This document shows positions 2,437-33,763 of a DNA stretch of 33,763 bases, piece after piece. This DNA is from a virus. Taxonomy: Duplodnaviria > Heunggongvirae > Uroviricota > Caudoviricetes. A program made the translations under genes and the position numbers. The DNA is taken from IMG/VR virus record IMGVR_UViG_3300042946_001496. One strand, written 5' to 3'. A model generated the notes under the pieces. That model did no database searches, had not been told where the DNA came from, and saw only the letters and a program-made list of their open reading frames with translations. Each line of letters opens with the position of its first letter. Positions within the stretch are counted from its first letter, which is position 1.

Positions 2437-2704
2437 CACTTTTTTTTCAACACTTAGAGTTCTTGCAATATGTTATGGTCTTTGGTATTTTTTGTGGATA
2501 TTGCCTGGATTTTTTTTAAGTGATGAATCTTTTCAAAAATACATGGATATTGTCTGGAGATTTTCTGAAAAAGATAAACAAGACCCATCTAGATTTTCTG
2601 GACCATTGATGACTTGGCTTTTCATCCAAGTTCCAGCAGGTTTAATAATAATTTTTTTAACTGAAGTTATTTTTAGACTTTTAAAGTATTTCAATGCAAT
2701 CTGA
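2417..2704 (+). CDS. Membrane protein, two predicted TM helices
   Basis: Two hydrophobic segments (VLAICYGLWYFLWILPGFFL; LMTWLFIQVPAGLIIIFL). Confidence 0.65.
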   Translation: MEKALINTFFSTLRVLAICYGLWYFLWILPGFFLSDESFQKYMDIVWRFSEKDKQDPSRFSGPLMTWLFIQVPAGLIIIFLTEVIFRLLKYFNAI

Positions 2705-2978
2705 AACAAAACTTAAAAGTTTTCTTGATACTAAGAAAATCTACAATGCAGAATTCTTTTACGGACGCAATCGTTATTCTGCTGATAATAGTTGGAAAAT
2801 TTACGGATCGTTGGACTACAAAAAATTTACACAAACATTTTTTACTGTAGAATTGTCGCTTGTTATAGAGTTTGATGAAAAAAATAACCTTGTCATGACC
2901 AAAGATGAGGTTTTTGAAATAATTAACCGGAAGCCAAGCTTTTGGAGCACTCTAAAAGACAAAACCGGTCTGCGTTGA
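2694..2978 (+). CDS. LxSF-leader protein, family B (FD..E/FW type)
   Basis: Starts MQSETKLKSF; IEFDEKN...FWSTL parallels 10267, 10547, 11705 and 12030. Confidence 0.7.
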   Translation: MQSETKLKSFLDTKKIYNAEFFYGRNRYSADNSWKIYGSLDYKKFTQTFFTVELSLVIEFDEKNNLVMTKDEVFEIINRKPSFWSTLKDKTGLR

Positions 2979-2986
2979 AATTTCAT

Positions 2987-3003
2987 TTTCTTTCTGGTAT
3001 GCT
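2987..3003 (+). promoter_or_regulatory. Recurrent motif TTTCYTTYTGGTAYGCT, copy 1
   Basis: tttctttctggtatgct, intergenic, upstream of ATG 3038. Confidence 0.55.
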
Positions 3004-3037
3004 CGTCGTTGTGTAGAAAACCCCAGAAAGTCATCTT

Positions 3038-3211
3038 ATGTCTAAACCAAATCACTATAGTTTCGACATCTACAGAGTTTATGTTGAAAATGAAAAAGAA
3101 TTAGTAAGTTTAGAAATTGACAATGTAATATCTTGGGATAGTTTTAAGCTTAAGATGACAAAAGAAGAATTTGAAAAATTTGTACTTTTTGTTCAAGGGT
3201 ATCTCAAATGA
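3038..3211 (+). CDS. Hypothetical protein (57 aa, below ORF-track cutoff)
   Basis: MSKPNHYSFD...VQGYLK*; fills the gap and is ATGA-coupled to 3208. Confidence 0.65.
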   Translation: MSKPNHYSFDIYRVYVENEKELVSLEIDNVISWDSFKLKMTKEEFEKFVLFVQGYLK

Positions 3212-3396
3212 TAATTGACTTTTTTCTTACAGCAAATATCAAACGTGATAGTGTGGTAGATTTGCTTAAAAAAGCTTTAGAGCAAGAAACCGGAAAGAAA
3301 GTGGAACATATCAAGTTTGATACAGCCCAGATGTCAGGTAACTTTGATGGAATTACTGTAACTTTTGCTAAAGAAAAACTTGAGCCCATAGATTAA
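3208..3396 (+). CDS. Hypothetical protein
   Basis: 62-aa coupled ORF. Confidence 0.65.
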   Translation: MIIDFFLTANIKRDSVVDLLKKALEQETGKKVEHIKFDTAQMSGNFDGITVTFAKEKLEPID

Positions 3397-3419
3397 GAAC
3401 ATCTAAAAGGAAATAAAAT

Positions 3420-3698
3420 ATGATTAGTATCGGAAAAGAAAAAGCAGTCTCTTTCTATGACACAAAATGGTGGGAAAATTGCACAGATCAAGAGATTGTG
3501 AGATTTCAACTTTTTGTTGAAGAACTCTGTGTGCCGTTTAGCAAATTCCATGAAGCAGTAGAAAGTGTGCTAGATCATGCAGTATTTACTCATTCCTTTG
3601 CTTTGAATTATGGCGGAATAGTTAGTGAATTTCTAAAAGAACGTAGTGCTCCTACAGAAAAAGAAGTTGTTGACTTCTATCAGAAGTGGGTTAAATGA
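3420..3698 (+). CDS. Hypothetical protein
   Basis: 92 aa, AAGGA upstream, coupled to the next gene. Confidence 0.75.
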   Translation: MISIGKEKAVSFYDTKWWENCTDQEIVRFQLFVEELCVPFSKFHEAVESVLDHAVFTHSFALNYGGIVSEFLKERSAPTEKEVVDFYQKWVK

Positions 3699-3880
3699 GT
3701 AGCAACGAGTCACAACATAACAAATATTGGTCTGAGCTTAAAAAGCTATCTGATCAAGAAAATGTTATTGAATTCTTAAAACTGTACTGCAAGTATCTAG
3801 AAGCCTCCAACATTATCTCCCCTTCTAGGGGAATCTTATACAAAATGATACAAAAGACTATAAACGCACTAGATAAGTGA
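3695..3880 (+). CDS. Hypothetical protein
   Basis: 61-aa coupled ORF. Confidence 0.6.
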   Translation: MSSNESQHNKYWSELKKLSDQENVIEFLKLYCKYLEASNIISPSRGILYKMIQKTINALDK

Positions 3881-4092
3881 CTTATCTTGAAGATTGGTTG
3901 AATAAAATCAATTGGGGCTATGGGATGGGTCAACCATCTAGAATTCTAAGCAACAAAACTTCTCTTTTAGAGCAAGTTAAAGCAGCAAGAACAGACGAAG
4001 AGATATTAAAAACATTCAAGTATATTTTTCATGGTGCGTTAGAAGAAAAATTTTCAAGTGATCTTAAAAAAAATAAAACGGGCAAAAAATAA
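3877..4092 (+). CDS. Hypothetical protein
   Basis: 71-aa coupled ORF, GTG start. Confidence 0.6.
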   Translation: MTYLEDWLNKINWGYGMGQPSRILSNKTSLLEQVKAARTDEEILKTFKYIFHGALEEKFSSDLKKNKTGKK

Positions 4093-4117
4093 AAGATAAA
4101 ATTAACTTAACTTTTCA

Positions 4118-4795: not shown

Positions 4796-5072
4796 AGATG
4801 GCAATCCTGTCACTGATTCTTCTCATCACAAGCATCTTTTAAGCATTGTGAAAGTTTTGCCCACCGACTATAATCCTTGGGGAAATGTTGTAAGGTGGCA
4901 GGACAGTTCCCTAGCATACCCGGATTGCTGCTCCTGCCGCTACTACGCTGCCCTAGAAGGCAGACTAGGGATGGATTGGGGAGTATGCACCAAACCCGAA
5001 TCGCCCCGCAGCGGGCTTTTAACTTTTGAACATCAAGCGGGTTTTGGTTGCCATGAGGACGATGAGCAGTGA
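4770..5072 (+). CDS. Cys-rich protein, DUF3027-like (start uncertain: TTG 4770 or GTG 4848)
   Basis: DCCSCRYYAALEGRLGMDWGVCTKPESPRSGLLTFEH..GC pattern. Confidence 0.55.
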   Translation: MINFSNYDKDGNPVTDSSHHKHLLSIVKVLPTDYNPWGNVVRWQDSSLAYPDCCSCRYYAALEGRLGMDWGVCTKPESPRSGLLTFEHQAGFGCHEDDEQ

Positions 5073-5341
5073 GTGAAGATTTAAAAGATTTACTTTATAG
5101 TTTTGAAGAAGGTCTCAATAAAGAAGAACTTATTAAGTGGGTTGTTGGTAATGGCGGAACAATTACCTCTGATGATCCCCAAAGTAATATAGTTATTGGT
5201 AAAATTTACAATGCATCTTTTCGTTATTTTATTGACGAAGATTGGTGCGGAGTTACCCCTAGTAAAGATAAGAATTGGCGAAAAGCAATTGCGTGTTATA
5301 CTTTTTTAGATTTTAAAGAAACAGTAAAAAGATTGGATTAA
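5069..5341 (+). CDS. Hypothetical protein
   Basis: 90-aa coupled ORF. Confidence 0.65.
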   Translation: MSEDLKDLLYSFEEGLNKEELIKWVVGNGGTITSDDPQSNIVIGKIYNASFRYFIDEDWCGVTPSKDKNWRKAIACYTFLDFKETVKRLD

Positions 5342-7206: not shown

Positions 7207-7614
7207 ATGAATAAAAAACTTTTAAATTCGTTTGTAGAAATATCTGATAATCTTAAAAGTTTTATTAAAGATCATGAACTTTGGCTTTATCATAATTCTT
7301 ATGACGGGGATAATGAAGAAAAAGCTCTTAAAAATCTTTTAGACTACATTAAAGAAAATCTTGATCATCAGTATTTTTGCACCATATATCGCACAGCGTA
7401 CCACCCCACCAAACCATCTGATGATGGTGATCAAGAAATGTTTTTTGGAGATAAACAAACAGTTGAAGAAAAATTACAAGACTATCCATATTTTAAAGGA
7501 AAATATAGTTTTACAATGCTTTTTAATATTAAAGAAGATAAAGAAGCCTTTATTATACTCAGCGAACGCCTCGGCTACATTACATGTAGCGATCCCTGGA
7601 TGAAAAATTACTAA
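7207..7614 (+). CDS. LxSF-leader protein (singleton)
   Basis: MNKKLLNSF, 135 aa. Confidence 0.75.
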   Translation: MNKKLLNSFVEISDNLKSFIKDHELWLYHNSYDGDNEEKALKNLLDYIKENLDHQYFCTIYRTAYHPTKPSDDGDQEMFFGDKQTVEEKLQDYPYFKGKYSFTMLFNIKEDKEAFIILSERLGYITCSDPWMKNY

Positions 7615-7638: not shown

Positions 7639-7980
7639 ATGAACTTCCAACAAGATGATTGGGACGAAGAAAAAATCCTTAAAGTTAAAAAGATTTTATT
7701 TGATAAATGGCAAAAAATTTGTTTTAATTTAAGTCCACACACCCCAGCAGCACCAACAAATATAAATAATCAAATTGAATGGAAAAAATGGTTAGCCGAT
7801 AATGGAATTAAAAAATATAAAGAATTGTGGATATGTATTCAATTTTTAGATAGCAATCATATAATGGTAGATATAAGCCCAAAATCACATCCACACGCAG
7901 GTGATGATTACAAGCTTTTTCTTCTTGTTCCAAAAGATTTTGCAAAAAAACTTATAGTACTAAGCACATTTGAAGATTAA
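7639..7980 (+). CDS. Hypothetical protein
   Basis: 113-aa ORF. Confidence 0.65.
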   Translation: MNFQQDDWDEEKILKVKKILFDKWQKICFNLSPHTPAAPTNINNQIEWKKWLADNGIKKYKELWICIQFLDSNHIMVDISPKSHPHAGDDYKLFLLVPKDFAKKLIVLSTFED

Positions 7981-7981: not shown

Positions 7982-8359
7982 ATGAGCTTATTAAACAAAT
8001 TTCGATCTGACACCGAAAAATTAAATAAAGCTTGGAGAGATGATCTTGATAATTTAAGCGATGACGATAAAGTTAAAAAAATTGATGATATATTAAAAAA
8101 AGTAAAAGAATACAATATTATTGTAGGTCGCAAATATTATATTTTAGAAGACATAGTGCTTTACTACAACTTGCAAGACAACGAAAAACTTAAAGACTTA
8201 ATGATAAGAACATTTGGTAAAAATCCAAAATATTCTTACATGTGTGCTACACTTATACAAAAACGAATACCAGAATTAGAAGAAATTATTAATCAAGATC
8301 TCGCATATTTAGAGTATTACAATAAATTTATGCAAAGTATCGAGCTTTCTAATGAATAA
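7982..8359 (+). CDS. Hypothetical protein with near-motif leader (MSLLNKF)
   Basis: ATG 7982 in ORF 7970-8359. Confidence 0.65.
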   Translation: MSLLNKFRSDTEKLNKAWRDDLDNLSDDDKVKKIDDILKKVKEYNIIVGRKYYILEDIVLYYNLQDNEKLKDLMIRTFGKNPKYSYMCATLIQKRIPELEEIINQDLAYLEYYNKFMQSIELSNE

Positions 8360-8768
8360 AGATCTACTAAACAGTTTCGTTCCTGTTGAAAACCAGATAA
8401 AAGATGCTATAGCTAAAGACATAGTCAATATTGAAAAGTTTCTTAAAAAAAGAAAAAGAATATTGAACTATTGGGAGCTTGATCGCAATGAAATAAAGTG
8501 TTTGCGATTACTGCTTAAGAATTTGCATGAAATTAAAAATCGTGAAGAAACTTTGCTTTTTGGATATTTTACTTTTGAAATAAAAGCAGATATTTCAAAA
8601 ATAGACGTTCATGACTTTAGAGAGATTATAAGAAATTTTACACCTGAAACATTAAAAGTTTTAGTTGCCAATAAGATAGAGGCAGATTGCGAACTAACAG
8701 ACAAATCAAATGTATACAACGTAGAACATCTTATTGTTGAGTGCGGAGAAAGAAAATGTCAAAACTAG
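8352..8768 (+). CDS. LxSF-leader protein (singleton)
   Basis: MNKDLLNSF, 138 aa. Confidence 0.7.
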   Translation: MNKDLLNSFVPVENQIKDAIAKDIVNIEKFLKKRKRILNYWELDRNEIKCLRLLLKNLHEIKNREETLLFGYFTFEIKADISKIDVHDFREIIRNFTPETLKVLVANKIEADCELTDKSNVYNVEHLIVECGERKCQN

Positions 8769-8852: not shown

Positions 8853-9032
8853 ATGAGTTTACTTGATAGTTTCGACAAAACTAAGATAAAATGCTCAGCC
8901 TGTTCAACATATGTTGAAATAAAAGAATCTTGGAGTATTTTTGGCAAACGTACTTGTCGAAAGTGTTTATCAATATTTTTAAAACAAAATAAAAATAATG
9001 ATTATTATATCCCTATTCGTGGTAAACATTAG
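8853..9032 (+). CDS. LxSF-leader zinc finger, family A (59 aa, not in ORF track)
   Basis: MSLLDSFDKTKIKCSACSTY...TCRKC. Confidence 0.75.
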   Translation: MSLLDSFDKTKIKCSACSTYVEIKESWSIFGKRTCRKCLSIFLKQNKNNDYYIPIRGKH

Positions 9033-9771: not shown

Positions 9772-10121
9772 ATGAAAAAGTCACTGGACACTTTTATAAA
9801 TATAAATTTAGATAGCATTCCTTTTAACATCTGGGATGACTACTATGGCGATGGATGTGGAAAAATTCAAGAAACACATGGTTACATTGAAGAGTCTGAT
9901 GAATTAAACGAAGAACAAAAAGAAGAAATCTGCTCTTTAGTTTTTAACAGGCTAAAAAGCTAAAAAAACTAAACTTGCCGGGTGTAATTCTTGAAAACGA
10001 AGCTGATGAGATCTACTTTAAAAATTTAACTCATGAGCGAAGAGAAAAATTGGTTGACGAACTATGTTTGTTAAAACTGATGTATCGAAACATCCCGATT
10101 GAATTTTATAGCGAGTCTTGA
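9772..10121 (+). pseudogene. LxTF-leader gene broken by an 8-bp tandem duplication
   Basis: MKKSLDTF...; removing one gctaaaaa (9951-9958) restores a single frame ending FYSES* next to ATG 10122. Confidence 0.65.
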
Positions 10122-10273
10122 ATGAAAAATCTTCTTGATAGTTTTGCGAAAAATGTAAAAAATATTTTGAAAAAAAAGACTTAACAAGTTGGAGTGTACG
10201 ATTTCTTTGTAAACCTTGTAAAGAATATATCGATATTTATTTGGAGCAAAAATATAAGCTAATAAAATGGTAA
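10122..10273 (+). pseudogene. Frameshifted family A zinc-finger gene
   Basis: MKNLLDSF in frame 0; CEKCKKYFE...FLCKPCKE...KW* in the -1 frame; the usual xKxKxK linker is missing. Confidence 0.7.
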
Positions 10274-10563
10274 AACTAGTTAGTTTCATCAATAAAGTTC
10301 AATTTAAACTTCTTGCAGCACAAGTCGCACCGTCGTATAGGGACGTACCAACACCGTGGCACCGTATTAAAGTTAAAGGGCTTTATCCAGGCGGAACTCC
10401 TGTTTTATTTTACGTTAGTGATATAATCAATATTAACAGAAAAGAAAAATTCTTTGAAACCAGGTTTTGCATTGTAAACGTAAAATCGTATTTAGATGAT
10501 GAAGAATTATTCTGGAATTCCTTAGAATATCTGGTGATACCAGAAAATGTCAAAACTAGCTAG
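10267..10563 (+). CDS. LxSF-leader protein, family B
   Basis: MVKLVSFINK...INRKEKFFET...FWNSL. Confidence 0.8.
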   Translation: MVKLVSFINKVQFKLLAAQVAPSYRDVPTPWHRIKVKGLYPGGTPVLFYVSDIININRKEKFFETRFCIVNVKSYLDDEELFWNSLEYLVIPENVKTS

Positions 10564-10840
10564 TTTCATCAATAAGCACAAAGAAGAAATACGCATACAT
10601 TATCCTTCTTTTTATAAGGAAGATAAAAGAATGTTTTGTAGTAGATTTTATGGTATGGTCCACCACCATAGTAATCCTATATTTTTTATCTATAAAAACG
10701 AAATAGTCTTTATAGATAAAAAAGAAAAAATTTTTGAAACCACTAATGTTAGCTATATTGTAAAATCCATAATAGATCAAGATTTAAATTTCCAAAAAGA
10801 AGGATTTTGGGAAAATTTATCACAATATGCTCGGCTTTAA
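10547..10840 (+). CDS. LxSF-leader protein, family B
   Basis: MSKLASFINK...IDKKEKIFET...FWENL. Confidence 0.8.
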   Translation: MSKLASFINKHKEEIRIHYPSFYKEDKRMFCSRFYGMVHHHSNPIFFIYKNEIVFIDKKEKIFETTNVSYIVKSIIDQDLNFQKEGFWENLSQYARL

Positions 10841-10853: not shown

Positions 10854-11081
10854 ATGGATCAAGAAAAATCAAAAAATTTGTTGAACAGCTTTAATGATTT
10901 TAAATTAATAATTGGTAAAGATTTTATTTGTTGGGGGTATTGTCCTTGGTGTTTAGAATTTTCTAGATTCAAGTGGTATGATCTTTTAACACTCATTTGC
11001 ATAAGTTGTCATAAAAAGATTACAACTACAGATAACATAAATCCAGATGGATCAAGAAAAATCAAAAAACTTGTTGAATAG
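10854..11081 (+). CDS. LxSF-leader zinc ribbon, family C
   Basis: MDQEKSKNLLNSF...GYCPWCLE...CISC. Confidence 0.8.
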   Translation: MDQEKSKNLLNSFNDFKLIIGKDFICWGYCPWCLEFSRFKWYDLLTLICISCHKKITTTDNINPDGSRKIKKLVE

Positions 11082-11295
11082 CTTTACTGAGTTTAAGGTA
11101 GTTGCTGCAATTGAACGACCTCGCAGTTCTGGTGATGTTATATGGCAAGGAACTTGTCCTTGGTGCTTAGAAGAATCTAAATTTACAATTTATTGGGTTC
11201 ATATATACCAACGATTGTTGTGTGAAAAATGTAGGAATGAAGTAATGTGGGATACAAAAAACATATATGAAAGAACAATCAAAAAATCTATTTGA
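11047..11295 (+). CDS. LxSF-leader zinc ribbon, family C
   Basis: MDQEKSKNLLNSF...GTCPWCLE...CEKC. Confidence 0.8.
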   Translation: MDQEKSKNLLNSFTEFKVVAAIERPRSSGDVIWQGTCPWCLEESKFTIYWVHIYQRLLCEKCRNEVMWDTKNIYERTIKKSI

Positions 11296-11422
11296 AAGCT
11301 TTGTTGTGTGCAAAGCAAAACTGCGTAAGGAGAAATATCCGACTTCTCTGGATGTTGGACGGGATCATTATTATGCTTGGTTTGGAACTTGTCCTTGGTG
11401 TTTAGAAAATGATGTTGAGTAG
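11267..11422 (+). CDS. Family C member, truncated after CPWCLE (51 aa, not in track)
   Basis: MKEQSKNLFESF...WFGTCPWCLENDVE*; lacks the second CxxC. Confidence 0.6.
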   Translation: MKEQSKNLFESFVVCKAKLRKEKYPTSLDVGRDHYYAWFGTCPWCLENDVE

Positions 11423-11429: not shown

Positions 11430-11630
11430 ATGTTGAACAGCAAACTACTCGAAAGTTTTGACAAAGATAAAATTAAATGTACAGACTGTGGGGAGTATTA
11501 TGATAAAAAACTTATATGCTGTACAGACTGTCTTTTGAAAGAAGTTAATAGACAAACGATAGAAACTTTTCGTACTATCTTGGAAAAAAGAAAAATGACC
11601 AGTAAACTCGACACTTTTAATAAAAATTAG
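11430..11630 (+). CDS. LxSF-leader zinc finger, family A, with an aborted second leader at its C-terminus
   Basis: MLNSKLLESFDKDKIKCTDCGEYYD...CTDC; ends MTSKLDTFNKN* (ATG 11595). Confidence 0.7.
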   Translation: MLNSKLLESFDKDKIKCTDCGEYYDKKLICCTDCLLKEVNRQTIETFRTILEKRKMTSKLDTFNKN

Positions 11631-11704: not shown

Positions 11705-12046
11705 ATGCCTAATAATAAAAAAATATTAGATAGCTTTATCAATAAGCGTAAAGTTGAACTTTTTGAAGTTGTTTTTCTTAAAGCATTCCTCTCTACTTGG
11801 TCGACCATGGCTGCAACGAACGTCATCGCAACGTCGAAAATAAATGGAACAGTATATCCTTCAGCTAAACCCGAAGGAGGACACGGCTACAGAAAAAGCT
11901 TCGAAGTCAGTCAGATAATTTATTTTGACAAAAAAGAAAAATTTTTTGAAACTGAAAAAGAAATTTTAAAGATACAATCATTCCACAAATTTAATACCGA
12001 AAATTATTTCTGGAGCTGGTTAGAACAAGATGTCAAAATTAAGTAG
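11705..12046 (+). CDS. LxSF-leader protein, family B
   Basis: MPNNKKILDSFINK...FDKKEKFFET...FWSWL. Confidence 0.8.
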   Translation: MPNNKKILDSFINKRKVELFEVVFLKAFLSTWSTMAATNVIATSKINGTVYPSAKPEGGHGYRKSFEVSQIIYFDKKEKFFETEKEILKIQSFHKFNTENYFWSWLEQDVKIK

Positions 12047-12281
12047 TTTTAGCAATAAAATTAAACATAGAGTATGTGATGCATACATCAAGCATATGTT
12101 TTGGGCTGAACCTACAGAATCCTTATCAATAAAAGGACTTGGTTGTTTTTTTAATGAAATTGTTTTCTTTGATAAAGAAGAAAAAATTATTGAAACGGCG
12201 AATACGATGTTCATTATATCGTCTTTTAAATACGACGAACAATCTTTTTGGAATACTTTAGAAGAGAAAATCAAACAATGA
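12030..12281 (+). CDS. LxSF-leader protein, family B
   Basis: MSKLSSFSNK...FDKEEKIIET...FWNTL. Confidence 0.8.
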   Translation: MSKLSSFSNKIKHRVCDAYIKHMFWAEPTESLSIKGLGCFFNEIVFFDKEEKIIETANTMFIISSFKYDEQSFWNTLEEKIKQ

Positions 12282-12484
12282 AAAACAATCTCGATAGCTT
12301 TAATAAAGATAAAATTAAATGCAAAAAATGCAAAAGTTATTATGATCCTGGAGATTGGGTTACACCATCATTATGCACATTTTGTAACGAAAAATGGCTT
12401 CAATATTGGTATGACAAGCGAATGATAAAAAAGTCAGTTATAGAATCAGATAAACTTTGGGAAGCTTTCTTAAATGAACAATAA
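12278..12484 (+). CDS. Array unit 1, family A zinc finger
   Basis: MKNNLDSFNKDKIKCKKCKSYYD...LCTFC..KW...WEAFLNEQ. Confidence 0.88.
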   Translation: MKNNLDSFNKDKIKCKKCKSYYDPGDWVTPSLCTFCNEKWLQYWYDKRMIKKSVIESDKLWEAFLNEQ

Positions 12485-12725
12485 ACTCGACAGTTTTAAC
12501 AAAGATAAAAGAAAATGTCAAAAGTGTAAAAATTACTACGATGTATTGATAGGCAATTTATGCGTGGGACGCGGCAGCGAAGAATGCAGTAAAAAATGGC
12601 TCCAATATTTTTACAAAAAAGCAAAACTTTGCACCATAGCGTACCAACTCAAAGCCTCCCAGGCGATCGAGAAGCTCCACCATCATAGGAGATCCACATT
12701 TAAAGAATTTTTAAATGAACAATAA
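12474..12725 (+). CDS. Array unit 2
   Basis: MNNKLDSFNKDKRKCQKC...LCVGRGSEEC..KW...FKEFLNEQ. Confidence 0.88.
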   Translation: MNNKLDSFNKDKRKCQKCKNYYDVLIGNLCVGRGSEECSKKWLQYFYKKAKLCTIAYQLKASQAIEKLHHHRRSTFKEFLNEQ

Positions 12726-12891
12726 ACTTGATACTTTCAACAAAGATAAAAGAAAATGTCAAAAATGTAAAGAGTATTTTGATGCTCCTCGGTGGAGCTG
12801 TTTATGTGAAGATTGCTATATAAAATGGGCGATCGCTGCCCACAAACATCTGTGCAGCATTGAAGATTGGTGTAACAGTGAACAAACTTGA
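12715..12891 (+). CDS. Array unit 3 (58 aa, not in track)
   Basis: MNNKLDTFNKDKRKCQKCKEYFD...LCEDC..KW...IEDWCNSEQT. Confidence 0.85.
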   Translation: MNNKLDTFNKDKRKCQKCKEYFDAPRWSCLCEDCYIKWAIAAHKHLCSIEDWCNSEQT

Positions 12892-13102
12892 CTCTTTCAA
12901 CAAAGATAAAAGAAAATGCAAAAAGTGTCCAGAGTATTATGATATAAATCTCTGGGGTATAGCGTCGAGTTGGGCCTTATGTGAAGATTGTGATAAAAAA
13001 TGGATGCTTTATTATCGGACCCTACCAGCGTACCACCAAAACGCTGATAATTTTAATTACAACCAAATGTTTGAAGATTGGTGTAAGAATGAACAAACTT
13101 GA
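12878..13102 (+). CDS. Array unit 4 (GTG start)
   Basis: MNKLDSFNKDKRKCKKCPEYYD...LCEDC.KKW...FEDWCKNEQT. Confidence 0.85.
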   Translation: MNKLDSFNKDKRKCKKCPEYYDINLWGIASSWALCEDCDKKWMLYYRTLPAYHQNADNFNYNQMFEDWCKNEQT

Positions 13103-13349
13103 CTCTTTCAACAAAGATAAAAGAAAATGCAAAAAGTGTAAAAATTATTGCGATAAAAAACCCCTGAATTTCCTTTTATCTGACAAATTATGTGAATATT
13201 GCACAGCAAAATGGCGTATCTTTAAAGATTCTTGGTATTCTAGGTATTTTACGTTGGGGACCTCGTTAGATATTCGCAAAGCTTTTGAAGACTGGTGCGA
13301 CAGTGAATCGGATTGTTTTAAAGAGTATTTAAATGAAAAACAAACTTGA
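13089..13349 (+). CDS. Array unit 5
   Basis: MNKLDSFNKDKRKCKKC...LCEYC..KW...FEDWCDSESDCFKEYLNEKQT (doubled tail). Confidence 0.88.
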   Translation: MNKLDSFNKDKRKCKKCKNYCDKKPLNFLLSDKLCEYCTAKWRIFKDSWYSRYFTLGTSLDIRKAFEDWCDSESDCFKEYLNEKQT

Positions 13350-13515
13350 TGCTTTTAATAAAGATAAAAGAAAGTGTGAAAAATGCAAAGAGTATTATGA
13401 TAAAACTGAAAACAAACTATGTGTAGATTGTAACGAAAAATGGATTCAATTTTGCGGGAGAATAGTGGGACGGGGGACACTTTTGAAAGTTTGGAGTGAG
13501 TTTTTAAATGAATAA
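13333..13515 (+). CDS. Array unit 6
   Basis: MKNKLDAFNKDKRKCEKC...LCVDC.EKW...WSEFLNE. Confidence 0.88.
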   Translation: MKNKLDAFNKDKRKCEKCKEYYDKTENKLCVDCNEKWIQFCGRIVGRGTLLKVWSEFLNE

Positions 13516-13705
13516 CAAACTCGATGCTTTTAATAAAGATAAAGCTAAGTGTTTAAAATGTAAAGATTACTTTGAGCTGAGAGATAGCCGGTTAAAATAT
13601 ATGTGTAGAAATTGTCATGAAAAATGGGCAAAATACATCAAAAGCTTTAAACACTTGAAAGATATGAACAGTTTTGAAAATTGGTGTAACAATGAACAAA
13701 CTTGA
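13508..13705 (+). CDS. Array unit 7
   Basis: MNNKLDAFNKDKAKCLKC...MCRNC.EKW...FENWCNNEQT. Confidence 0.88.
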   Translation: MNNKLDAFNKDKAKCLKCKDYFELRDSRLKYMCRNCHEKWAKYIKSFKHLKDMNSFENWCNNEQT

Positions 13706-13898
13706 TGCTTTTAACAACGATAAAACTAAATGCAAAAAGTGTAAAAATTATTATGATAAAATAAAAGCGTTCGGAGCTAAAAAAGTTTTGTGTGACAGTT
13801 GTTATGAAAAATGGTTCATAGCGTGCCAACAACGTTTGAAGCTCACCGGTCGCCACATGACGCAAAGAGATTTTGAAAATTGGTGTAACGAGAAATGA
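13692..13898 (+). CDS. Array unit 8
   Basis: MNKLDAFNNDKTKCKKC...LCDSC.EKW...FENWCNEK. Confidence 0.88.
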   Translation: MNKLDAFNNDKTKCKKCKNYYDKIKAFGAKKVLCDSCYEKWFIACQQRLKLTGRHMTQRDFENWCNEK

Positions 13899-14080
13899 AC
13901 GAACTTGATACTTTTAATAAAGATAAAATTAAATGCACTAAATGTAAAAATTATTATGATGAAACTGAAAATAAACTATGTTTAGATTGTAACAAAAAAT
14001 GGATGAAATATTACAATAACCACAGGGAAAGTACGGATTCACGGCGATGTTGGGAGGAATGGCTCAACAATGAACAATAA
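13895..14080 (+). CDS. Array unit 9
   Basis: MNELDTFNKDKIKCTKC...LCLDC.KKW...WEEWLNNEQ. Confidence 0.88.
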   Translation: MNELDTFNKDKIKCTKCKNYYDETENKLCLDCNKKWMKYYNNHRESTDSRRCWEEWLNNEQ

Positions 14081-22744: not shown

Positions 22745-23572
22745 ATGCGATTTACAACAACAGGCAAAATAGATCCGAGCAGTATTGCAGACCTTTGGTT
22801 TAAGAGTAAACCAAAGGATAATTCTCGTACCAACGAAATGGAAATGTATGAATTTGTTGGAGCATTAAGCAATACTAAAACAAATATTGATTTCATAGCC
22901 ATTGGTATGCTTCTTGGCGGTCATATTAATGATGAAGTTGTTTATGATAAAATGTTAAGTGACAACCTTTTAAAAGGTCAATATAGCAATTTAGAAAAAG
23001 CTTTTGGAGTAATTTCTTTAAATAGAAGTAGTTACATTCAAGCTTTTATTGCAAAAGAAGATAAGAAAGATGAATGGACTGGTGATGTTTTATTTATAAT
23101 GCCTCCTATGTTATACGAAGAACAAGACAGACATATGTTTTTTTCAACAGTTCAACATGAACTAAGACACGCATTAGATTTTGTAGATTTTAACAATAAG
23201 CCAATTAAAAGTGATTATATGAAACCTCAACTTGACGGTAGTTATGAAGTAGACATTGATCTTTATTCAAGACATGTCTCAGAAGCAAGAGCACATTCAG
23301 ATCAAGCGGTAGTTTTGATCAAAAAACTAGGCAAAGAAGAGGCTAAGAATGTTATCAAAAACAGTCGGTTTAGCCTCGCCAGCGATGAAATGAGAGAAGC
23401 TATGGTTCTATTGATTGACAAATTGGCAGAAGAAGCTGTAAAAGAGAACTTGGCTCCTGTTGCAGTAGTTTCTAAAGCAGAAGACTCTGAATCCAGAGAG
23501 CTAGTTAATCATTTAACTAAAATTCTTGAACTTTTCCGGTTTAGAAATTTCATTCATTTTAAGCAAAAATGA
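22745..23572 (+). CDS. HExxH-containing putative zinc metallopeptidase-fold protein
   Basis: STVQHELRHALD with a downstream E (SEARAH); CATAAATA 4 nt before the ATG. Confidence 0.6.
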   Translation: MRFTTTGKIDPSSIADLWFKSKPKDNSRTNEMEMYEFVGALSNTKTNIDFIAIGMLLGGHINDEVVYDKMLSDNLLKGQYSNLEKAFGVISLNRSSYIQAFIAKEDKKDEWTGDVLFIMPPMLYEEQDRHMFFSTVQHELRHALDFVDFNNKPIKSDYMKPQLDGSYEVDIDLYSRHVSEARAHSDQAVVLIKKLGKEEAKNVIKNSRFSLASDEMREAMVLLIDKLAEEAVKENLAPVAVVSKAEDSESRELVNHLTKILELFRFRNFIHFKQK

Positions 23573-23745
23573 ACAAACTTTTTGAAAGTTTTGAATCAGA
23601 ATACTTTTGTCCTAAATGTGCTCAAAAACTTGTCACTAGTCTTTTTAAAGGTGCTGGAGTCAAGATAGTTGAATGTTCTAAGTGCAATTACTGTTCTGGT
23701 TTAGAGTATCACAAAGTGTTTTATGACAAAAAGAAGAAAGATTGA
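23569..23745 (+). CDS. Near-LxSF-leader zinc ribbon (58 aa, not in track)
   Basis: MNKLFESFESEYFCPKC...ECSKC. Confidence 0.7.
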   Translation: MNKLFESFESEYFCPKCAQKLVTSLFKGAGVKIVECSKCNYCSGLEYHKVFYDKKKKD

Positions 23746-23953
23746 CAAAATAACTATCGATAACAAAATGTTCTCAGACGAGGATTGGAGAGCATTTGTT
23801 ATTTGCGTAGATGAAGAAGGTAATTATTGGGAGCTTCGTGCTATTTCAGCCGACAATCCAACAAAGGCTTTAGAAAACGCTTTAGAAGCCTTTAACGAAG
23901 AAGACTGGACTGTTTACGGTTACACTATAGACCGTTACAGGACACACAAATGA
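23723..23953 (+). CDS. Hypothetical protein
   Basis: 76-aa ORF. Confidence 0.6.
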   Translation: MTKRRKIDKITIDNKMFSDEDWRAFVICVDEEGNYWELRAISADNPTKALENALEAFNEEDWTVYGYTIDRYRTHK

Positions 23954-24225
23954 ACAATCTTGATAGTTTCATCAACAAAGATAAAACAAAGTGTTCTAAT
24001 TGTAAAGAATACTTTGATTTGTCAGAAATTTATCCGTATCATGTTGGTAAAAATTTATTAGATTTTTGTTGTAATTGTGTTTTGTCACACATACCATTTG
24101 GACACTTCGACAGCTACTTTACTTCCGGAGAAAAGATTGATGATTGGGCATCAAAAAATCTTTTTTCAAAAAAATATTATGTAGAAAATAACTTTTATGA
24201 TCACTGCCTGAGTTGGAATCGCTAA
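23950..24225 (+). CDS. LxSF-leader zinc finger, family A
   Basis: MNNLDSFINKDKTKCSNCKEYFD...FCCNC. Confidence 0.8.
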   Translation: MNNLDSFINKDKTKCSNCKEYFDLSEIYPYHVGKNLLDFCCNCVLSHIPFGHFDSYFTSGEKIDDWASKNLFSKKYYVENNFYDHCLSWNR

Positions 24226-24401: not shown

Positions 24402-24602
24402 ATGATTTCATTAAAAGACTTAAAAAGCGAAGACGTTGGAAGATGGGTAAAATACTCTTCGTTCAATAGATTTGAAAAAGGTAAAATTAAAAGCTGGAAC
24501 GATGAGTATGTTTTTGTTGTTTATAAGTGTGGGGATCAATGGGAAAAATATGAAGAATACACAGCAGCAGCAACATTGCCGCAGGATTTAGACTGGATAT
24601 GA
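24402..24602 (+). CDS. Hypothetical protein
   Basis: 66 aa, GAGG upstream. Confidence 0.7.
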   Translation: MISLKDLKSEDVGRWVKYSSFNRFEKGKIKSWNDEYVFVVYKCGDQWEKYEEYTAAATLPQDLDWI

Positions 24603-24826
24603 GCAAAAAACTATTAGAGAATTTTAGGAATGATGATTATATCGCTCCTTTAGGATCTATTTGCGTAGGACCAGAAAAGAACGGTATTCCATATATGTTT
24701 GTTTGGAAAGAAGCTGAAACAATAAGGTTTGAATTTCGAACAATGCCAAAATTTCCTATAATGTTTGACTATAGTGTTTGCCCTGAATTAATAGCAGCTT
24801 TGAACAAACTTCAAAATGAAAACTAA
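24599..24826 (+). CDS. Hypothetical protein with near-motif leader (MSKKLLENF)
   Basis: 75-aa coupled ORF. Confidence 0.65.
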   Translation: MSKKLLENFRNDDYIAPLGSICVGPEKNGIPYMFVWKEAETIRFEFRTMPKFPIMFDYSVCPELIAALNKLQNEN

Positions 24827-24995
24827 AAATAAAAATTTGCTAAAAAGCTTTGATAAAAATATCTGCAAGCGATTTTTTCAGAATGATAAAGGAGAATACA
24901 AGAAAAAATGTTGTGGCGGAATTCTGGAACCTTATAGGATGTTGGGTTACATGTGCAATAAATGTAATACTTTTACTTTTACACTTTATGAATAA
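24816..24995 (+). CDS. LxSF-leader Cys-rich protein (59 aa, not in track)
   Basis: MKTKNKNLLKSFDKNIC...KCCG...MCNKC. Confidence 0.7.
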   Translation: MKTKNKNLLKSFDKNICKRFFQNDKGEYKKKCCGGILEPYRMLGYMCNKCNTFTFTLYE

Positions 24996-25191
24996 AAATA
25001 TTTTACTTTCTTTTGAAAATTTCATTTGCGATCAATGTTCTTGTAATGGAACAGTCAAAAACACTGTAGATTTAAATTGGTATAAAAAAGGATTGATTGT
25101 AGATTTTATTAAGTGTAAAAATTGTGGACATGATTGGTGCTTGAAAAGAAATAAACAAAATGGTAATATTGTTGAAAATGTGGAGCCATAA
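24988..25191 (+). CDS. LxSF-leader zinc ribbon, family D
   Basis: MNKNILLSFENFICDQC...DLNWYKKG...CKNC; ATG 24988. Confidence 0.8.
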   Translation: MNKNILLSFENFICDQCSCNGTVKNTVDLNWYKKGLIVDFIKCKNCGHDWCLKRNKQNGNIVENVEP

Positions 25192-25784: not shown

Positions 25785-26192
25785 ATGAAAAATTTTGATA
25801 AATGGCTACAAGAAAATGAACTAGTACGAGGAGGAGTGCTATCAAACCCAGTATTAAATGCAAGAAAAGATGATGAAATTGTTCAACAAAAAGGAATGGT
25901 CAAATACAATAAAAGACCAGCGGACCACGATCAATGGAAGTGTAATAAGTGTGGGGAATGGAATAATTCAAATCGTGGGGATAAATGTAGTGCCTGTCGA
26001 AGAGGAAATGGTGGAGAAAGAGTAGAAACTAGAAATGGCTCTATGTTGTTAAAATCAACGATACGGTCATTAGATAACGCTATTCAAGAGTTACGTCCAC
26101 ATCACCTTCTTCTGAGCGTGGTTAATTCACTTGAAGCACAAAAACATAATTTGATCAAACAGCTCGAAGATGTAGCCAGAAAGTTTAAATGA
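25785..26192 (+). CDS. Protein with MKxFxxWLxE N-terminus and a RanBP2-like zinc finger
   Basis: MKNFDKWLQE...WKCNKCGEWNNSNRGDKCSAC. Confidence 0.75.
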   Translation: MKNFDKWLQENELVRGGVLSNPVLNARKDDEIVQQKGMVKYNKRPADHDQWKCNKCGEWNNSNRGDKCSACRRGNGGERVETRNGSMLLKSTIRSLDNAIQELRPHHLLLSVVNSLEAQKHNLIKQLEDVARKFK

Positions 26193-26749
26193 AGAAATTT
26201 TCAACATGGTTAGAAGAATTTTCCGCTCATGATTTCGCTAAAGAAAAGCATGATTCTACTGAAAAAGTAAGAAAACTTTCTGGTCTGCCATATTTTACTC
26301 ATCCAAGTAATGTGGCTGATTTGTTAAAAAGTGCTGGGGCAAGTAAAGAAGTTGTTATGGCTGGTTATCTGCATGACACCACAGAAGACGCTGGTTTTAG
26401 TTTAGAAGAAATAAAAGAAAAATTTGGAAATAGAGTTGCCGAATTGGTTTCCGGCTCAAGCGAACCAGACAAAGGTGCTAGTTGGGATGAAAGAAAACAG
26501 CACACAATTAGTTATCTAAAAAGCATCAAAGACCCAGAAATACTATATGTTGTCGTAGCGGATAAGCTAGACAATGTAACAGATACTCATGTAAATGGCG
26601 GTCCTGGAATATGGAGTAAGTTTAACGCTCCATATGAAAAACAAAAGTGGTATTACAAAACTCTATCGGATATATTTCTTGATAAAATACCAAATTTTTC
26701 ATTAACTCAAAAATACAAAACAATAGTTGAAAAAGTTTTTGATGACTGA
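26189..26749 (+). CDS. HD-domain protein, RelA/SpoT-type (p)ppGpp hydrolase-like (small alarmone hydrolase)
   Basis: H....RK.SG.PY..HP..VA, AGYLHDTTED, FG.RVA.LV, ERK, ADKLDN; N-terminus MKKFSTWLEE. Confidence 0.88.
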   Translation: MKKFSTWLEEFSAHDFAKEKHDSTEKVRKLSGLPYFTHPSNVADLLKSAGASKEVVMAGYLHDTTEDAGFSLEEIKEKFGNRVAELVSGSSEPDKGASWDERKQHTISYLKSIKDPEILYVVVADKLDNVTDTHVNGGPGIWSKFNAPYEKQKWYYKTLSDIFLDKIPNFSLTQKYKTIVEKVFDD

Positions 26750-26751: not shown

Positions 26752-26982
26752 ATGCAAAAAAAACTTCTTAAAAGTTTCATAGACAGAAAATGTTATGTCT
26801 GTGCTAGAGTTTTGGAAAAACTTGAAGTATCAGCTATAGTAAATATAGATGGAATTGAAGAACATTATTGTTTATGTTGTCATGTTTTTTCATACCCGCC
26901 GGGAAGCTACCCCACTACGATCTACAGCGTTCCTAAATGCCACAGTAGCACGACTTTGTTTGAGAATCTAAGGGATGGATAA
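26752..26982 (+). CDS. LxSF-leader zinc finger
   Basis: MQKKLLKSFIDRKCYVC...HYCLCC. Confidence 0.75.
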   Translation: MQKKLLKSFIDRKCYVCARVLEKLEVSAIVNIDGIEEHYCLCCHVFSYPPGSYPTTIYSVPKCHSSTTLFENLRDG

Positions 26983-27265
26983 TAAATTACTTGGAAGTTT
27001 CGATCAAAATAAAAGAAAATGCTGTGCATGCGATGAATATTTCGATAAAGATGATCATGAAAATTATAAATGGGATGAAAAATTAGTTTCGCGACAAAAT
27101 ATAGACAATTTTTACGAAAGATATCACGATCGCATTGATACTTTGTTCCACAAACGAAAAACATATTGCCCAAATTGTTTTGAAAAAAAGTATGAATTAG
27201 ATTTGGAAGTGAAGGCTAAGTCTATTCTTAACAAAGCCCCTCCTTGGCTCAAAATAGATGATTAG
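26975..27265 (+). CDS. LxSF-leader zinc finger, family A
   Basis: MDNKLLGSFDQNKRKCCACDEYFD...YCPNC. Confidence 0.8.
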   Translation: MDNKLLGSFDQNKRKCCACDEYFDKDDHENYKWDEKLVSRQNIDNFYERYHDRIDTLFHKRKTYCPNCFEKKYELDLEVKAKSILNKAPPWLKIDD

Positions 27266-30627: not shown

Positions 30628-30876
30628 ATGAAAAATCAAAAAAACAAAGAATCTCTGGATACTTTTTCAGATGTAAAAGAAGAGACTGTTACGATTACTG
30701 TTAAATTAAATGATAAATTGCCAGAGGGAGTTAAGTTTAACAAAGACACTATAGCCAGAATGATTCAAAAAGCTTTAGTAAACTATGGCTCCGACATGTG
30801 TGAGGCAATAACTCAAACTGGCGATTATGAAGATTTCGAATATATTGCAACACAAGTAATTTGGGAAATCAAATGA
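30628..30876 (+). CDS. LxTF-leader protein (singleton)
   Basis: MKNQKNKESLDTF. Confidence 0.7.
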   Translation: MKNQKNKESLDTFSDVKEETVTITVKLNDKLPEGVKFNKDTIARMIQKALVNYGSDMCEAITQTGDYEDFEYIATQVIWEIK

Positions 30877-31088
30877 AAAATCTAAATAGTTTTCTTGATT
30901 TTAAGTTTTATGAAATAACTGTTGGACGAACAGAACACAGTGAGGTTAAAATATGTGTTCAAGCTAAAAATAAATTAGAAGCTATTGAGATGGCTATTGA
31001 AAAAGCACAAAATATAGCTTTCCCAAGAGGAAATCACGCAAATTACAGCGTAGAGCATTTTAAAACAATGGAAAACTATAATGTCTAA
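30873..31088 (+). CDS. LxSF-leader protein (singleton)
   Basis: MKNLNSF; ATGA-coupled. Confidence 0.7.
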   Translation: MKNLNSFLDFKFYEITVGRTEHSEVKICVQAKNKLEAIEMAIEKAQNIAFPRGNHANYSVEHFKTMENYNV

Positions 31089-31439: not shown

Positions 31440-31458
31440 GGACAACGGAAAATGACAC

Positions 31459-31849: not shown

Positions 31850-31851
31850 TT

Positions 31852-32034
31852 ATGGAAAAAACTGTTAGTCTAGACAGTTTTGATGATAGCAAAGTAAAAT
31901 GCGATCATTGTAAAAAATATTTTCTTAAAGAAGATACAACTCTTTGTGGAAAGTCAGTCCACAGCAGCAAACTTGTTAATGTTTGCCGTTCTTGTACTAT
32001 CCATTATTGGGAGATAATGGCTAAAAAATGCTAG
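31852..32034 (+). CDS. LxSF-leader zinc finger, family A
   Basis: MEKTVSLDSFDDSKVKCDHCKKYF...VCRSC. Confidence 0.8.
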   Translation: MEKTVSLDSFDDSKVKCDHCKKYFLKEDTTLCGKSVHSSKLVNVCRSCTIHYWEIMAKKC

Positions 32035-32273
32035 ATAGCTTTGACAATAGTAAAAGAAAATGCAATCAATGTAAAAATTATTTTAATGCTAAGCATTCAG
32101 TAAACTCAAACAAACATTTCATTTGTATTGATTGCGGTATAAAAAATATAGTAAAAATGTTTCTTGATTTTAAAGAAAAAAATCCAAATTTTGAAATGCC
32201 CAGAATAGAAAATATTTTAACAAAACAAAACTTTAGCATAGAAGTTGAATATGAATTCAAAATTATTAGATAA
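32028..32273 (+). CDS. LxSF-leader zinc finger, family A
   Basis: MLDSFDNSKRKCNQCKNYF...ICIDC. Confidence 0.8.
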   Translation: MLDSFDNSKRKCNQCKNYFNAKHSVNSNKHFICIDCGIKNIVKMFLDFKEKNPNFEMPRIENILTKQNFSIEVEYEFKIIR

Positions 32274-32499
32274 GATTCTTCATTGTCAAGAAATTCAAAT
32301 ACCGGCAGATATGGCTTTAGGTATTGTTTCTCTATACTTATGCGGGAAAAAATCTTCTAATGAAGAATTGAGGGATTATTGCGATAATTGGCAAGAAGAA
32401 AATGGCGATGCGACTTATGATAAAATTATTACTTATGTTCAAGAATTGGGTTACATAAGAGAGATAACTGAAATAGCTTTTGATTCTGATTCACAATAA
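32251..32499 (+). CDS. Hypothetical protein
   Basis: MNSKLLDKI...; start 32245 or 32251. Confidence 0.6.
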   Translation: MNSKLLDKILHCQEIQIPADMALGIVSLYLCGKKSSNEELRDYCDNWQEENGDATYDKIITYVQELGYIREITEIAFDSDSQ

Positions 32500-32578
32500 C
32501 AAAAAGGAAAAAATCAGGCGATCCAGATTTTTGAAAAAAACTTAAAAGTTGGCACGAACAACAGCAAAATCAAACATT

Positions 32579-32989
32579 ATGAATAATCCTTTTTGGTACA
32601 AATTTGTTAATGGCAAAGTTTTTCCGTGCAAAGACATAAATGATCTTAAAGAGGCTTTTTCAGCAGATAGAAAAATAGACAGGACAGAAATCAGTGAAGA
32701 TTGCACCGTGTCTACTGTTTTTTTAGGACTAGATCACGGAATTACCCTTCTAGACGCTGATCTAAGAGCTCCTGTTTTGTTTGAGACTATGATTTTTGGC
32801 GGGGACCATGATGGTCAAACATATCGCTATTCAACATTTGGTGAAGCTAAACGAGGTCATTGGTTTATTGTAAAAATTTTAAGAGAAGGCAAAAAGCCAG
32901 AAGGTGGTTTTAATCTGAAAAAAATGCTGGATGATCTTGAAAAAGATATTAGCGTAGAGGATAATGCAGACTGGTGGAAAGCAGAATAA
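32579..32989 (+). CDS. Hypothetical protein ending NADWWK
   Basis: VSTVFLGLDHG...PVLFETMIFGG core; ATG 32579 preferred. Confidence 0.75.
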   Translation: MNNPFWYKFVNGKVFPCKDINDLKEAFSADRKIDRTEISEDCTVSTVFLGLDHGITLLDADLRAPVLFETMIFGGDHDGQTYRYSTFGEAKRGHWFIVKILREGKKPEGGFNLKKMLDDLEKDISVEDNADWWKAE

Positions 32990-32990
32990 A

Positions 32991-33305
32991 ATGAAACAAG
33001 CACAAACGAATAAATTAGATAGTTTCATAGACCAAAAATTAGAATTAATTGAGTTTTTAAAAAAATACAATATAGAGCATAGCGAAAGTAAAGTATATCG
33101 ACCCGGTATTGCGGATGTAGATGTCGTAGTCTGTTGGAAGAAAAAACGATTGAACGGTTCAAAATTTCCACCACCTTGTATTTTTGAGTTTAAAAACTCA
33201 AAAATCTTAAGATTTACTGGTTGTGAAGCTGATCCCCCAATATTTATTTTATATAAAGAAATTACAGATTGGGCGTATTCAAAATATGCAGCTAGACAGC
33301 AATGA
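32991..33305 (+). CDS. LxSF-leader protein (singleton)
   Basis: MKQAQTNKLDSF. Confidence 0.7.
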   Translation: MKQAQTNKLDSFIDQKLELIEFLKKYNIEHSESKVYRPGIADVDVVVCWKKKRLNGSKFPPPCIFEFKNSKILRFTGCEADPPIFILYKEITDWAYSKYAARQQ

Positions 33306-33462
33306 TTGTAAAAAATATTTTGAATTAAAAAAAATTCATAAATATCGTTTAACAAAAGAAATTGAATCAAAATATATTCATCTCTGTGGTAATTGCATGG
33401 TTCAAAGACATCCTTATAATGAACAACAGATCTTTGCATACCCCAAAATGTGGTTTTCTTGA
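33286..33462 (+). pseudogene. Family A-like gene lacking the first Cys and linker
   Basis: MQLDS-NDCKKYF...HLCGNC; F-D-x-x-K-x-K-C is missing in frame. Confidence 0.5.
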
Positions 33463-33473
33463 AGAGAAGAACT

Positions 33474-33763
33474 ATGAGCAAACTTGATGCTTTTGATGAC
33501 AATAAAGCAAGGTGTAAAGATTGCAAAAATTATTATGAGATACGGGATTGGGGTGCTCCATTAAAGGATAGAGGATTAGGAGGAAGTATAAAAAATTATA
33601 CTTTTAGATGTAGAAATTGTGTCGAGCGTACAAGCAATAAACGTGATTGTATCTTAGAGAAATTCCGAGCAGACAAAATAACAATGACTGGATTTTTTTA
33701 TGAAAACTCCCATGAAAATCGTCGGAATACACTTGAAAGTTTTGATGAAAACAAAAAGAAGTG
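33474..33763 (+). CDS. Family A zinc finger, partial, running off the window with a second in-frame leader
   Basis: MSKLDAFDDNKARCKDCKNYYE...RCRNC...NTLESFDENKKK(tg); no stop before the window end. Confidence 0.75.
   Translation, partial: MSKLDAFDDNKARCKDCKNYYEIRDWGAPLKDRGLGGSIKNYTFRCRNCVERTSNKRDCILEKFRADKITMTGFFYENSHENRRNTLESFDENKKK

Follow-up and report, generated by a model that had tools for sequence, protein, structure and literature searches.

A short peptide with the pattern L-x-[S/T/A]-F stands at or near the N-terminus of 38 small proteins encoded in a 33,763 bp stretch of DNA from a virus of the Caudoviricetes (IMG/VR record IMGVR_UViG_3300042946_001496; this whole stretch, 33.8 kb long, 30–37% G+C and with nearly every gene on the + strand, is "the window" below, and the peptide is "the leader"). 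The leader is a portable and conserved motif that acts at the level of the peptide, is probably flexible, is found on unrelated folds, and persists in orthologues while the residues around it change. We lean toward the view that it is a portable short linear docking motif on structurally unrelated mini-proteins, with a putative docking partner that these proteins would have in common.

Frequency and position of the leader

The window was scanned in six frames for L-x-[STA]-F preceded by an in-frame ATG no more than 12 codons upstream and followed by at least 40 codons, which gave 37 matches on the + strand and 3 on the − strand. Two of the + strand matches (11415 and 11448) share one open reading frame (ORF), leaving 36 genes, and two genes with GTG starts, a unit of a tandem array at 12878 and the gene at 5069 (LLYSF), bring the total to 38 leader genes among about 100 plausible genes in the window, with 1–9 residues between the Met and the Leu of the motif. 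Four other genes carry near-matches, at 7982 (LLNKF), 11267 (NLFESF), 23569 (KLFESF) and 24599 (LLENF). In a greedy gene set the motif is present in the first 13 residues of 32 of 97 genes, where amino acid composition predicts 1.04; its rate inside proteins (about 9 per 6400 residues) is just mildly over expectation. Counting each payload lineage once, ~14–15 independent leader occurrences remain. The start codons of most leader genes agree with independent JGI gene calls on contigs that have window-identical proteins in the same gene order; the exceptions are 24988, whose start JGI places 35 codons earlier, and array units 12715 and 12878, which are uncalled on contig L001.

The leader consensus is [K/N]-[K/L]-L-[D/N]-[S/T/A]-F, and (I)-N/D-K-x-K is frequent after it. 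The Phe is preceded by Ser in 29, Thr in 4 and Ala in 5 of the 38 copies, and Asp follows Leu in 20 of the 36 tabulated copies. No N-terminal leader is present on the window's KptA, TilS-like protein, NADAR, HNH, HD, PcfJ, pilin-like protein or lipoproteins. The last residues of a leaderless 113-aa protein (7639–7980), ..VLSTFED, also match the motif, which may be due to chance. An earlier note on this DNA, made from the sequence alone, had counted about 40 frames with such a leader and had reported its absence from KptA, TilS, NADAR, HNH, HD and PcfJ; the 38 + strand genes together with the four near-matches bear out the count, no N-terminal copy was found on any of those proteins, and the motif's frequency at N-termini lies far above the background level at which, according to that note, its proposal would fail.

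The leader is conserved as a peptide

Leucine in the leader is encoded by all six of its codons (CTT, CTC, CTA, CTG, TTA and TTG), Ser by AGT, AGC, TCT and TCG, Thr by ACT, Ala by GCT, and Phe by both of its codons. Usage of Leu codons in the leader is not distinguishable from the window background (p = 0.06 for all copies and p = 0.34 for one copy per lineage), and Ser is skewed to AGY (p = 0.001 for all copies and p = 0.04 for one per lineage). Apart from the ATG, no nucleotide position around independent leaders is conserved with much information. Because the codons are diverse and the upstream DNA is unconserved, selection acts at the peptide level, as the earlier note had argued from the use of both AGY and TCN codons for Ser. 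The AGY skew indicates in turn that the leaders probably share descent rather than having many separate origins.

Leader-bearing proteins have different payloads and predicted folds

To compare the payloads, a set of 40 proteins, without those of the GTG-start genes 5069 and 12878, was stripped of the leader and searched against itself with BLAST. The proteins fall into family A with 18 zinc-ribbon proteins, of which 11 come from a 12-unit array, family B with four Cys-free proteins, families C and D with three and two members, respectively, and 13 single sequences, three of which are near-match genes; the carriers are 59–201 aa long and include proteins with and without Cys. Alignment of the family A and B profiles with hhalign gives a probability of 85% across 24 columns, all of them leader, and 2.4% once the leader is removed. 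The AlphaFold2 (AF2) model of family A is a two-stranded zinc knuckle or hairpin followed by two helices (predicted local distance difference test score, pLDDT, 81), and that of family B has seven strands plus a C-terminal helix (pLDDT 78); in both models confidence is lowest over residues 1–10 (mean pLDDT 59). A stretch that is modelled with the least confidence and yet holds the most conserved residues is typical of a linear motif that is retained because a partner binds it, rather than for the sake of the fold. The leader is thus present on at least two different predicted folds and ~14 payload lineages that BLAST separates. The earlier note's statement that the payloads comprise at least four families plus singletons agrees with these groupings, and the outcome it had set against itself, a single homologous family in which the leader is part of the fold, is not what families A and B look like.

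Structure searches with the two models returned no hits in the PDB with Foldseek. With VIA-align the family B model consistently matched PH, PTB or GRAM domains, although weakly (Z 4.9–3.1) and from about residue 10–18 on, and the family A model matched generic helical hairpins alone; a protein atlas search yielded viral hypothetical clusters alone. Searched against 1.84 billion proteins, the family A profile hits 144 representative clusters, almost all of which are 55–130 aa long and leader-first. In an alignment of 98 family A sequences the sole invariant columns are L5, F8, C15, C18 and C30, the Cys being three of the four in the two CxxC pairs, and in 12 family B sequences M1, L4, S6, F7, N9 and K10 are invariant. 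The leader proteins belong to no Pfam or PHROG family, no profile significantly covers the leader, and the weak zinc-ribbon or PHROG matches found for three payloads each begin past it. INPHARED contains no matches to the window DNA or to a family A protein, and scans of IMG/VR and JGI with the exact window sequence and with a degenerate leader-plus-knuckle pattern also gave zero matches. Exact matches to its proteins put the window on metagenome contigs, of which the longest measures 141.5 kb.

The leader in related contigs

Related contigs were reached via orthologues of gene 18623 and via divergent family A members. In L004, a close relative with orthologue identities from 90% down to ~50%, there are 25 N-terminal motifs on the + strand vs 3 on the − strand, and the genes that bear them are members of family A arrays or orthologues of other leader genes of the window. 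In L012, eight genes belong to family A, and gene 7207 has a homologue there whose leader reads KKLLGTF. Orthologous pairs have ratios of nonsynonymous to synonymous substitution rates (dN/dS) of 0.29–0.43 and are therefore real proteins. In orthologues that are 55–57% identical the Leu, the Ser or Thr, and the Phe of the leader are kept, and the spacer, the x position and the choice between Ser and Thr vary.

Some leaders are not N-terminal: a 171-aa protein of L004 (L004:5121–5636) consists of a family A unit and a second, internal leader, PLNSFINN, and two family A proteins of the window described below (33474–33763, in its full form P0046, and 11430–11630) have an internal leader or the remnant of one. 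Such fusion and remnant forms are signs of ongoing unequal recombination and, together with the AGY skew, suggest that a module of ~12 residues has moved between small genes by recombination and tandem duplication.

Along the related contigs that were walked there are no clamp, polymerase, portal or protease genes, and accessory genes alone were seen. Peptidyl-tRNA hydrolases of the PTH2 type are encoded in related phages (L011:5474–5887 and L014:14551–14913), an observation of some note in genomes packed with mini-genes. Genes similar to IS605 OrfB/TnpB lie amid the mini-genes of two relatives (L004:11980–13146 and L012:5450–6628; minus strand); the corresponding site of the window has no such gene.

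Leader genes of the window

All of the leader genes described here are on the + strand. Twelve head-to-tail family A units form an array at 12278–14668 (unit starts at 12278, 12474, 12715, 12878 with GTG, 13089, 13333, 13508, 13692, 13895, 14070, 14263 and 14459), in which the leader M(N)NKLD[STA]FNKDKxK is followed by a CxxC...CxxC zinc ribbon and helices. At the array junctions the tails of the units (..NEQT-stop, ..FLNEQ-stop and ..DWCNNEQT) are encoded, in another frame, by the GGTG-type ribosome-binding site, the ATG and the MNKLD codons of the next unit, and the CTT-GAT (Leu-Asp) of each following unit contains the TGA stop of the one before. Genes 31553 and 32579, both upstream of leader genes, have ..ADWWK tails that the same other-frame effect explains. 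We infer that the C-terminal tail of the array units may represent out-of-frame translation of the following gene's ribosome-binding site, start and leader codons. An aromatic and acidic C-terminal tail was considered as a second common motif and rejected, as C-terminal Trp is enriched only when the family A paralogues are counted (p = 0.01) and the other lineages give p = 0.11.

Dispersed family A genes are found at 8853–9032 (MSLLDSF), 11430–11630 (LLESF, with an in-frame leader-like MMLSSF just upstream and a C-terminal leader remnant, SKLDTFNKN), 23950–24225 (MNNLDSFINKDK), 26975–27265 (KLLGSF, with a long insert in the protein and the leader kept in the L004 orthologue), 31852–32034 (SLDSF), 32028–32273 (MLDSF, the leader beginning at residue 2) and 33474–33763, which runs past the end of the window and whose full 154-aa form, P0046, consists of two units, the second leader, LESF, being internal. 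The four family B genes (Cys-free, all-beta and PH-like) lie at 10267–10563 (MVKLVSFINK), 10547–10840 (MSKLASFINK, the modelled member), 11705–12046 (KILDSFINK) and 12030–12281 (MSKLSSFSNK). Family C, zinc proteins with a CPWCLE motif, is encoded at 10854–11081 and 11047–11295 (both KNLLNSF) and at 11267–11422 (the near-match KNLFESF), and family D, CxxCxC zinc ribbons, at 20927–21124 (KDLLLSF) and 24988–25191 (KNILLSF; its start was set by analogy with 20927, and the JGI start is at 24883).

The singletons begin with the gene at 2694–2978 (TKLKSF), which has the C-terminal F-W-x-x-L signature of family B and may be a distant member of it, and the GTG-start gene at 5069–5341 (DLLYSF), which was missing from the earlier note's list. 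They continue with 7207–7614 (135 aa, KKLLNSF; KKLLGTF in the L012 homologue), 7982–8359 (125 aa, the near-match MSLLNKF), 8352–8768 (138 aa, KDLLNSF), 9772–9963 (KKSLDTF) and 18623–19228 (201 aa), whose leader MSLLSSF is kept in orthologues at 90% and 64% identity. A TFIIB-like zinc ribbon is encoded at 23569–23745 (the near-match MNKLFESF) and another near-match, KKLLENF, lies at 24599–24826. Cys-rich singletons are found at 24816–24995 (KNLLKSF) and 26752–26982 (KKLLKSF; KKLLKTF in the L004 orthologue), a Cys-poor one at 30628–30876 (KESLDTF; LDSF in its orthologues), and the last two at 30873–31088 (MKNLNSF; MKEQRLDSF in an orthologue) and 32991–33305 (104 aa, TNKLDSFIDQK).

Other genes of the window

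The recognisable genes of the window are of accessory or host-takeover types: KptA/Tpt1, NADAR, an HD(p)ppGpp-type hydrolase, a 221-aa TilS-like PP-loop protein, a PcfJ-like protein and a type IV pilin-like protein. The last of these (2047–2436), a pilin- or pseudopilin-like protein, has the canonical N-terminal methylation motif (Pfam N_methyl, E = 2e-6), and its presence in a phage may be a hint to the host. The TilS-like protein (window 14717–15382; L004:5703–6368; L011:2529–3176) is without the usual C-terminal tRNA-binding domains and is encoded 0–3.5 kb from the family A array in three lineages; its closest database relatives, ~30% identical, are from 635–642 kb uncultured megaphages. 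The minus-strand ORF at 15994–16788 has no Pfam match itself, and its counterparts in related loci bear HNH_2. In L008, L009 and L010, which are some of the contigs whose gene 18623 protein (201 aa) is identical to the window's, comparison with window positions 15994–17073 shows a longer minus-strand gene at this place (220 vs 200 aa) and a shorter NADAR call (121 vs 154 aa), which suggests variation around a putative homing endonuclease.

Two adjacent genes, 25785–26192 and 26189–26749, one of which encodes the HD hydrolase, start MKNFDKWLQE and MKKFSTWLEE. This MKxFxxWLxE pattern is a different leader that is similar to the capsid-targeting sequence (CTS) of phage T4, and the window holds two distinct classes of N-terminal leader.

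Possible roles of the leader

Were the leader to act by docking, it would be a flexible N-terminal extension, a K/N-rich run followed by (L)-L-x-[S/T/A]-F, carried by the mini-proteins of one uncultured freshwater giant phage lineage. Its Leu and Phe, spaced i and i+3 and with a small residue before the Phe, would insert side by side into a hydrophobic groove, the groove would belong to one partner common to all of the tagged proteins, and recombination and duplication would have carried the module from one small accessory gene to another. As to the partner, a sliding-clamp-like hub of replication or transcription is our first-ranked guess, although a doubtful one, because of the L-D-x-F core, the basic flank and the known cases of small phage transcription factors with a clamp motif at the N-terminus; a protease, a chaperone or an unknown phage protein, taken together, is a possibility to which we give some weight, and a role within the molecule or in self-association seems rather unlikely. 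The TilS-like protein, whose gene adjoins the arrays, is an improbable candidate for the partner.

The leader was compared with three known clamp-binding motifs. Of the bacterial motif QL[SD]LF it has L2, D3 and F5 and lacks Gln1 (position 1 is K, N or L) and Leu/Met4; of the PCNA-interacting peptide (PIP) box QxxLxxFF it has L4 and F7, with Gln rare and position 8 occupied by N, D, I, V, E, S or L; and the T4 gp45 motif LDFLF is matched in L-D, which is common, and is then replaced by S/T/A-F and a polar residue. It belongs to none of these motif classes, and by analogy with them could still work similarly on a different pocket. Prediction of complexes between a family A unit and stand-in clamps (E. 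coli beta and T4 gp45, neither of which is the cognate clamp) gave a score of 0.00, which speaks neither for nor against binding; in our prior estimate even a positive score would more probably have been false than true. No clamp gene is present in the window or related loci. The common docking or sorting tag of the earlier note, which was to deliver its carriers to a clamp, a capsid or a protease, survives as a peptide-level feature of unrelated payloads (on the evidence of the codons, the unconserved upstream DNA, leader-stripped BLAST, hhalign and the two predicted folds). The clamp as its machine stays a lead and no more, since the leader departs from the strict PIP, beta-clamp and T4 gp45 motifs at positions that define them; the capsid is weakened, since there is no Glu cleavage site and a better T4-like leader is present on other genes.

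Several points weigh against a docking motif or against a clamp as its partner. Strictly taken, the leader fits no known clamp-motif consensus, as Gln, the Leu before Phe and the second aromatic residue are all absent, and we know of no precedent for about a hundred different proteins docking on a clamp. The AGY skew, in pointing to probable shared descent, raises the possibility that some of the occurrences counted as independent go back to old homology; in L011, the most distant lineage sampled, the leader is present on the family A array only; and the carriers are mostly small Cys-rich proteins, which might be one very divergent superfamily. Finally, low pLDDT in a model is no proof that the leader peptide is free in the real protein.

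One alternative is that the carriers are a single fast-evolving superfamily whose leader is an inherited ancestral N-terminus that serves the protein itself, by fold capping, pairing with the C-terminal helix or self-association, with no outside partner. The AGY-skewed Ser codons fit such common descent, the similarity between families A and B reaches a few residues beyond the Phe (N/D-K-x-K), the majority of carriers are small CxxC proteins, and L011 is as this idea would have it. Nonetheless, we think it unlikely: the leader-stripped A and B profiles have nothing in common (2.4%), their predicted folds differ (a zinc ribbon with helices vs a PH-like beta sandwich) with the leader least confident in both, the carriers span 59–201 aa with and without Cys, and the C-terminal aromatic tail that they seemed to share is not significant outside family A (p = 0.11). 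Less probable still is that what is conserved is a nucleic-acid signal, a 5′ end kept for translation initiation, translational coupling or recombination with the peptide as its by-product. Residues 2–4 are K/N-rich and so have A-rich codons, and the array units overlap stop-to-start with each NEQT-stop tail encoded by the MNKLD codons of the next unit; however, every synonymous codon group of Leu, Ser and Phe occurs, no nucleotide but the ATG is conserved, the ATG-to-motif spacing varies between 1 and 9 codons, and orthologues swap codons and keep residues, so that this explanation is already largely refuted and we consider it very improbable indeed.

Two other explanations accept the leader as a signal and give it a different destination, and both seem to us improbable. 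In T4, internal proteins have a short N-terminal leader on polymorphic accessory proteins encoded in a hyperplastic region, and by the same logic the window's leader might, like the T4 CTS, direct its carriers to the capsid or virion, with the tagged mini-proteins packed into the head and injected. The leader has no L/I-x-E cleavage site, there being no conserved Glu within 10 residues past the Phe, where families A and B go on with N/D-K-x-K and where, in family A, the zinc knuckle begins after 7 residues; it is also found internally in fusion proteins; and the better T4-like leader on genes 25785 and 26189 would make two signals for one destination, which is unlikely. It is the missing cleavage site and the second, more T4-like leader that make capsid targeting an unlikely role. 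Alternatively, the leader might be a degradation or processing tag, with a host or phage protease or adaptor recognising the N-terminal peptide and so timing the removal of early proteins. N-terminal ClpX recognition signals are known, for example that of lambda O, and the leader's place at the extreme N-terminus and its basic-then-hydrophobic pattern loosely resemble them; the genes also lie in an apparently early, host-takeover region with KptA, NADAR and HD. Against such a degron, the window and related loci showed no gene for a protease or adaptor, and the strictly invariant Leu and Phe and the small residue before Phe suggest a specific pocket, where degrons are usually looser.

Returning to a docking motif, one tentative form of it is that LLxSF is a phage address label that plugs a library of mini-domains (zinc ribbons, PH-like domains and helical domains) into one hub, such as a sliding clamp or RNA polymerase; the library would then probably number more than 100 genes per genome, and would give the phage a combinatorial set of tools with which to take over the host or counter its defences. 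Should the tag have just one receptor, the identity of that receptor would assign a destination to at least a quarter of the lineage's orphan genes in one step, and a ready-made targeting peptide would be supplied. The two leader classes of the window also show that two N-terminal leader systems, one a T4-like capsid signal and the other the LxSF leader, can operate in parallel in one giant phage, which makes the sorting of phage accessory proteins a directly testable question.

Comparison with known systems

A literature search on LDSF and on jumbo-phage N-terminal motifs turned up no account of this leader. The T4 CTS is similar to it in being a short N-terminal peptide common to polymorphic, otherwise unrelated accessory proteins from a hyperplastic region of a large phage. 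It differs in its consensus and in its L/I-x-E site, the window's carriers are mostly tiny zinc proteins, and it is the separate MKxFxxWLxE leader of the same window that is far more T4-like. The leaders of ribosomally synthesised and post-translationally modified peptides (RiPPs; for example, prochlorosins) and the PEXEL and RxLR signals likewise place one short conserved N-terminal signal before a hyper-diversified, many-gene cargo. This is an analogy of logic only; RiPP leaders precede peptide cores, whereas the window's payloads are folded domains of 55–200 aa, and Pfam scans of 30 larger non-leader ORFs of the window and the tables of related loci contain no RiPP maturase or recognition element (radical-SAM, YcaO, LanM or PqqD-like).

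Bacillus phage G has a lineage-specific expansion of ~35 zinc-ribbon proteins (PMC7824862) and is the nearest described gene-family phenomenon: it too is a giant phage with tens of paralogous small zinc-ribbon proteins whose role is unassigned. Its copies gp32, gp34, gp35, gp37 and gp46 differ from the window's proteins in sharing a C-terminal tail of the KYWKENDRYL type and no common N-terminal leader, and they have no sequence similarity to the window's proteins and no tag that has spread to other folds. The leader is also similar to clamp-binding motifs in being a short, hydrophobic and acidic terminal peptide with an L-D-x-F core and basic flanks that is portable among unrelated proteins. 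The LDFLF motif of T4 ligase and polymerase binds gp45 (PMC6212786), and small phage DNA-binding proteins are known that have such a motif right after the Met: MuC and Mor of phage Mu have the beta-clamp motifs QHDLF and DLF directly after it, in a Mor/C family with the consensus Qx[D/E][L/M]F (PMC12867686). The window's leader differs from these in having no Gln, S/T/A in place of Leu before Phe, no second aromatic residue and no FLF cluster, and its carriers are far more numerous than any known set of clamp clients. Judged by its sequence, the leader matches no known family, and it would appear to resemble the known shared leader and docking peptides on diversified phage accessory proteins.

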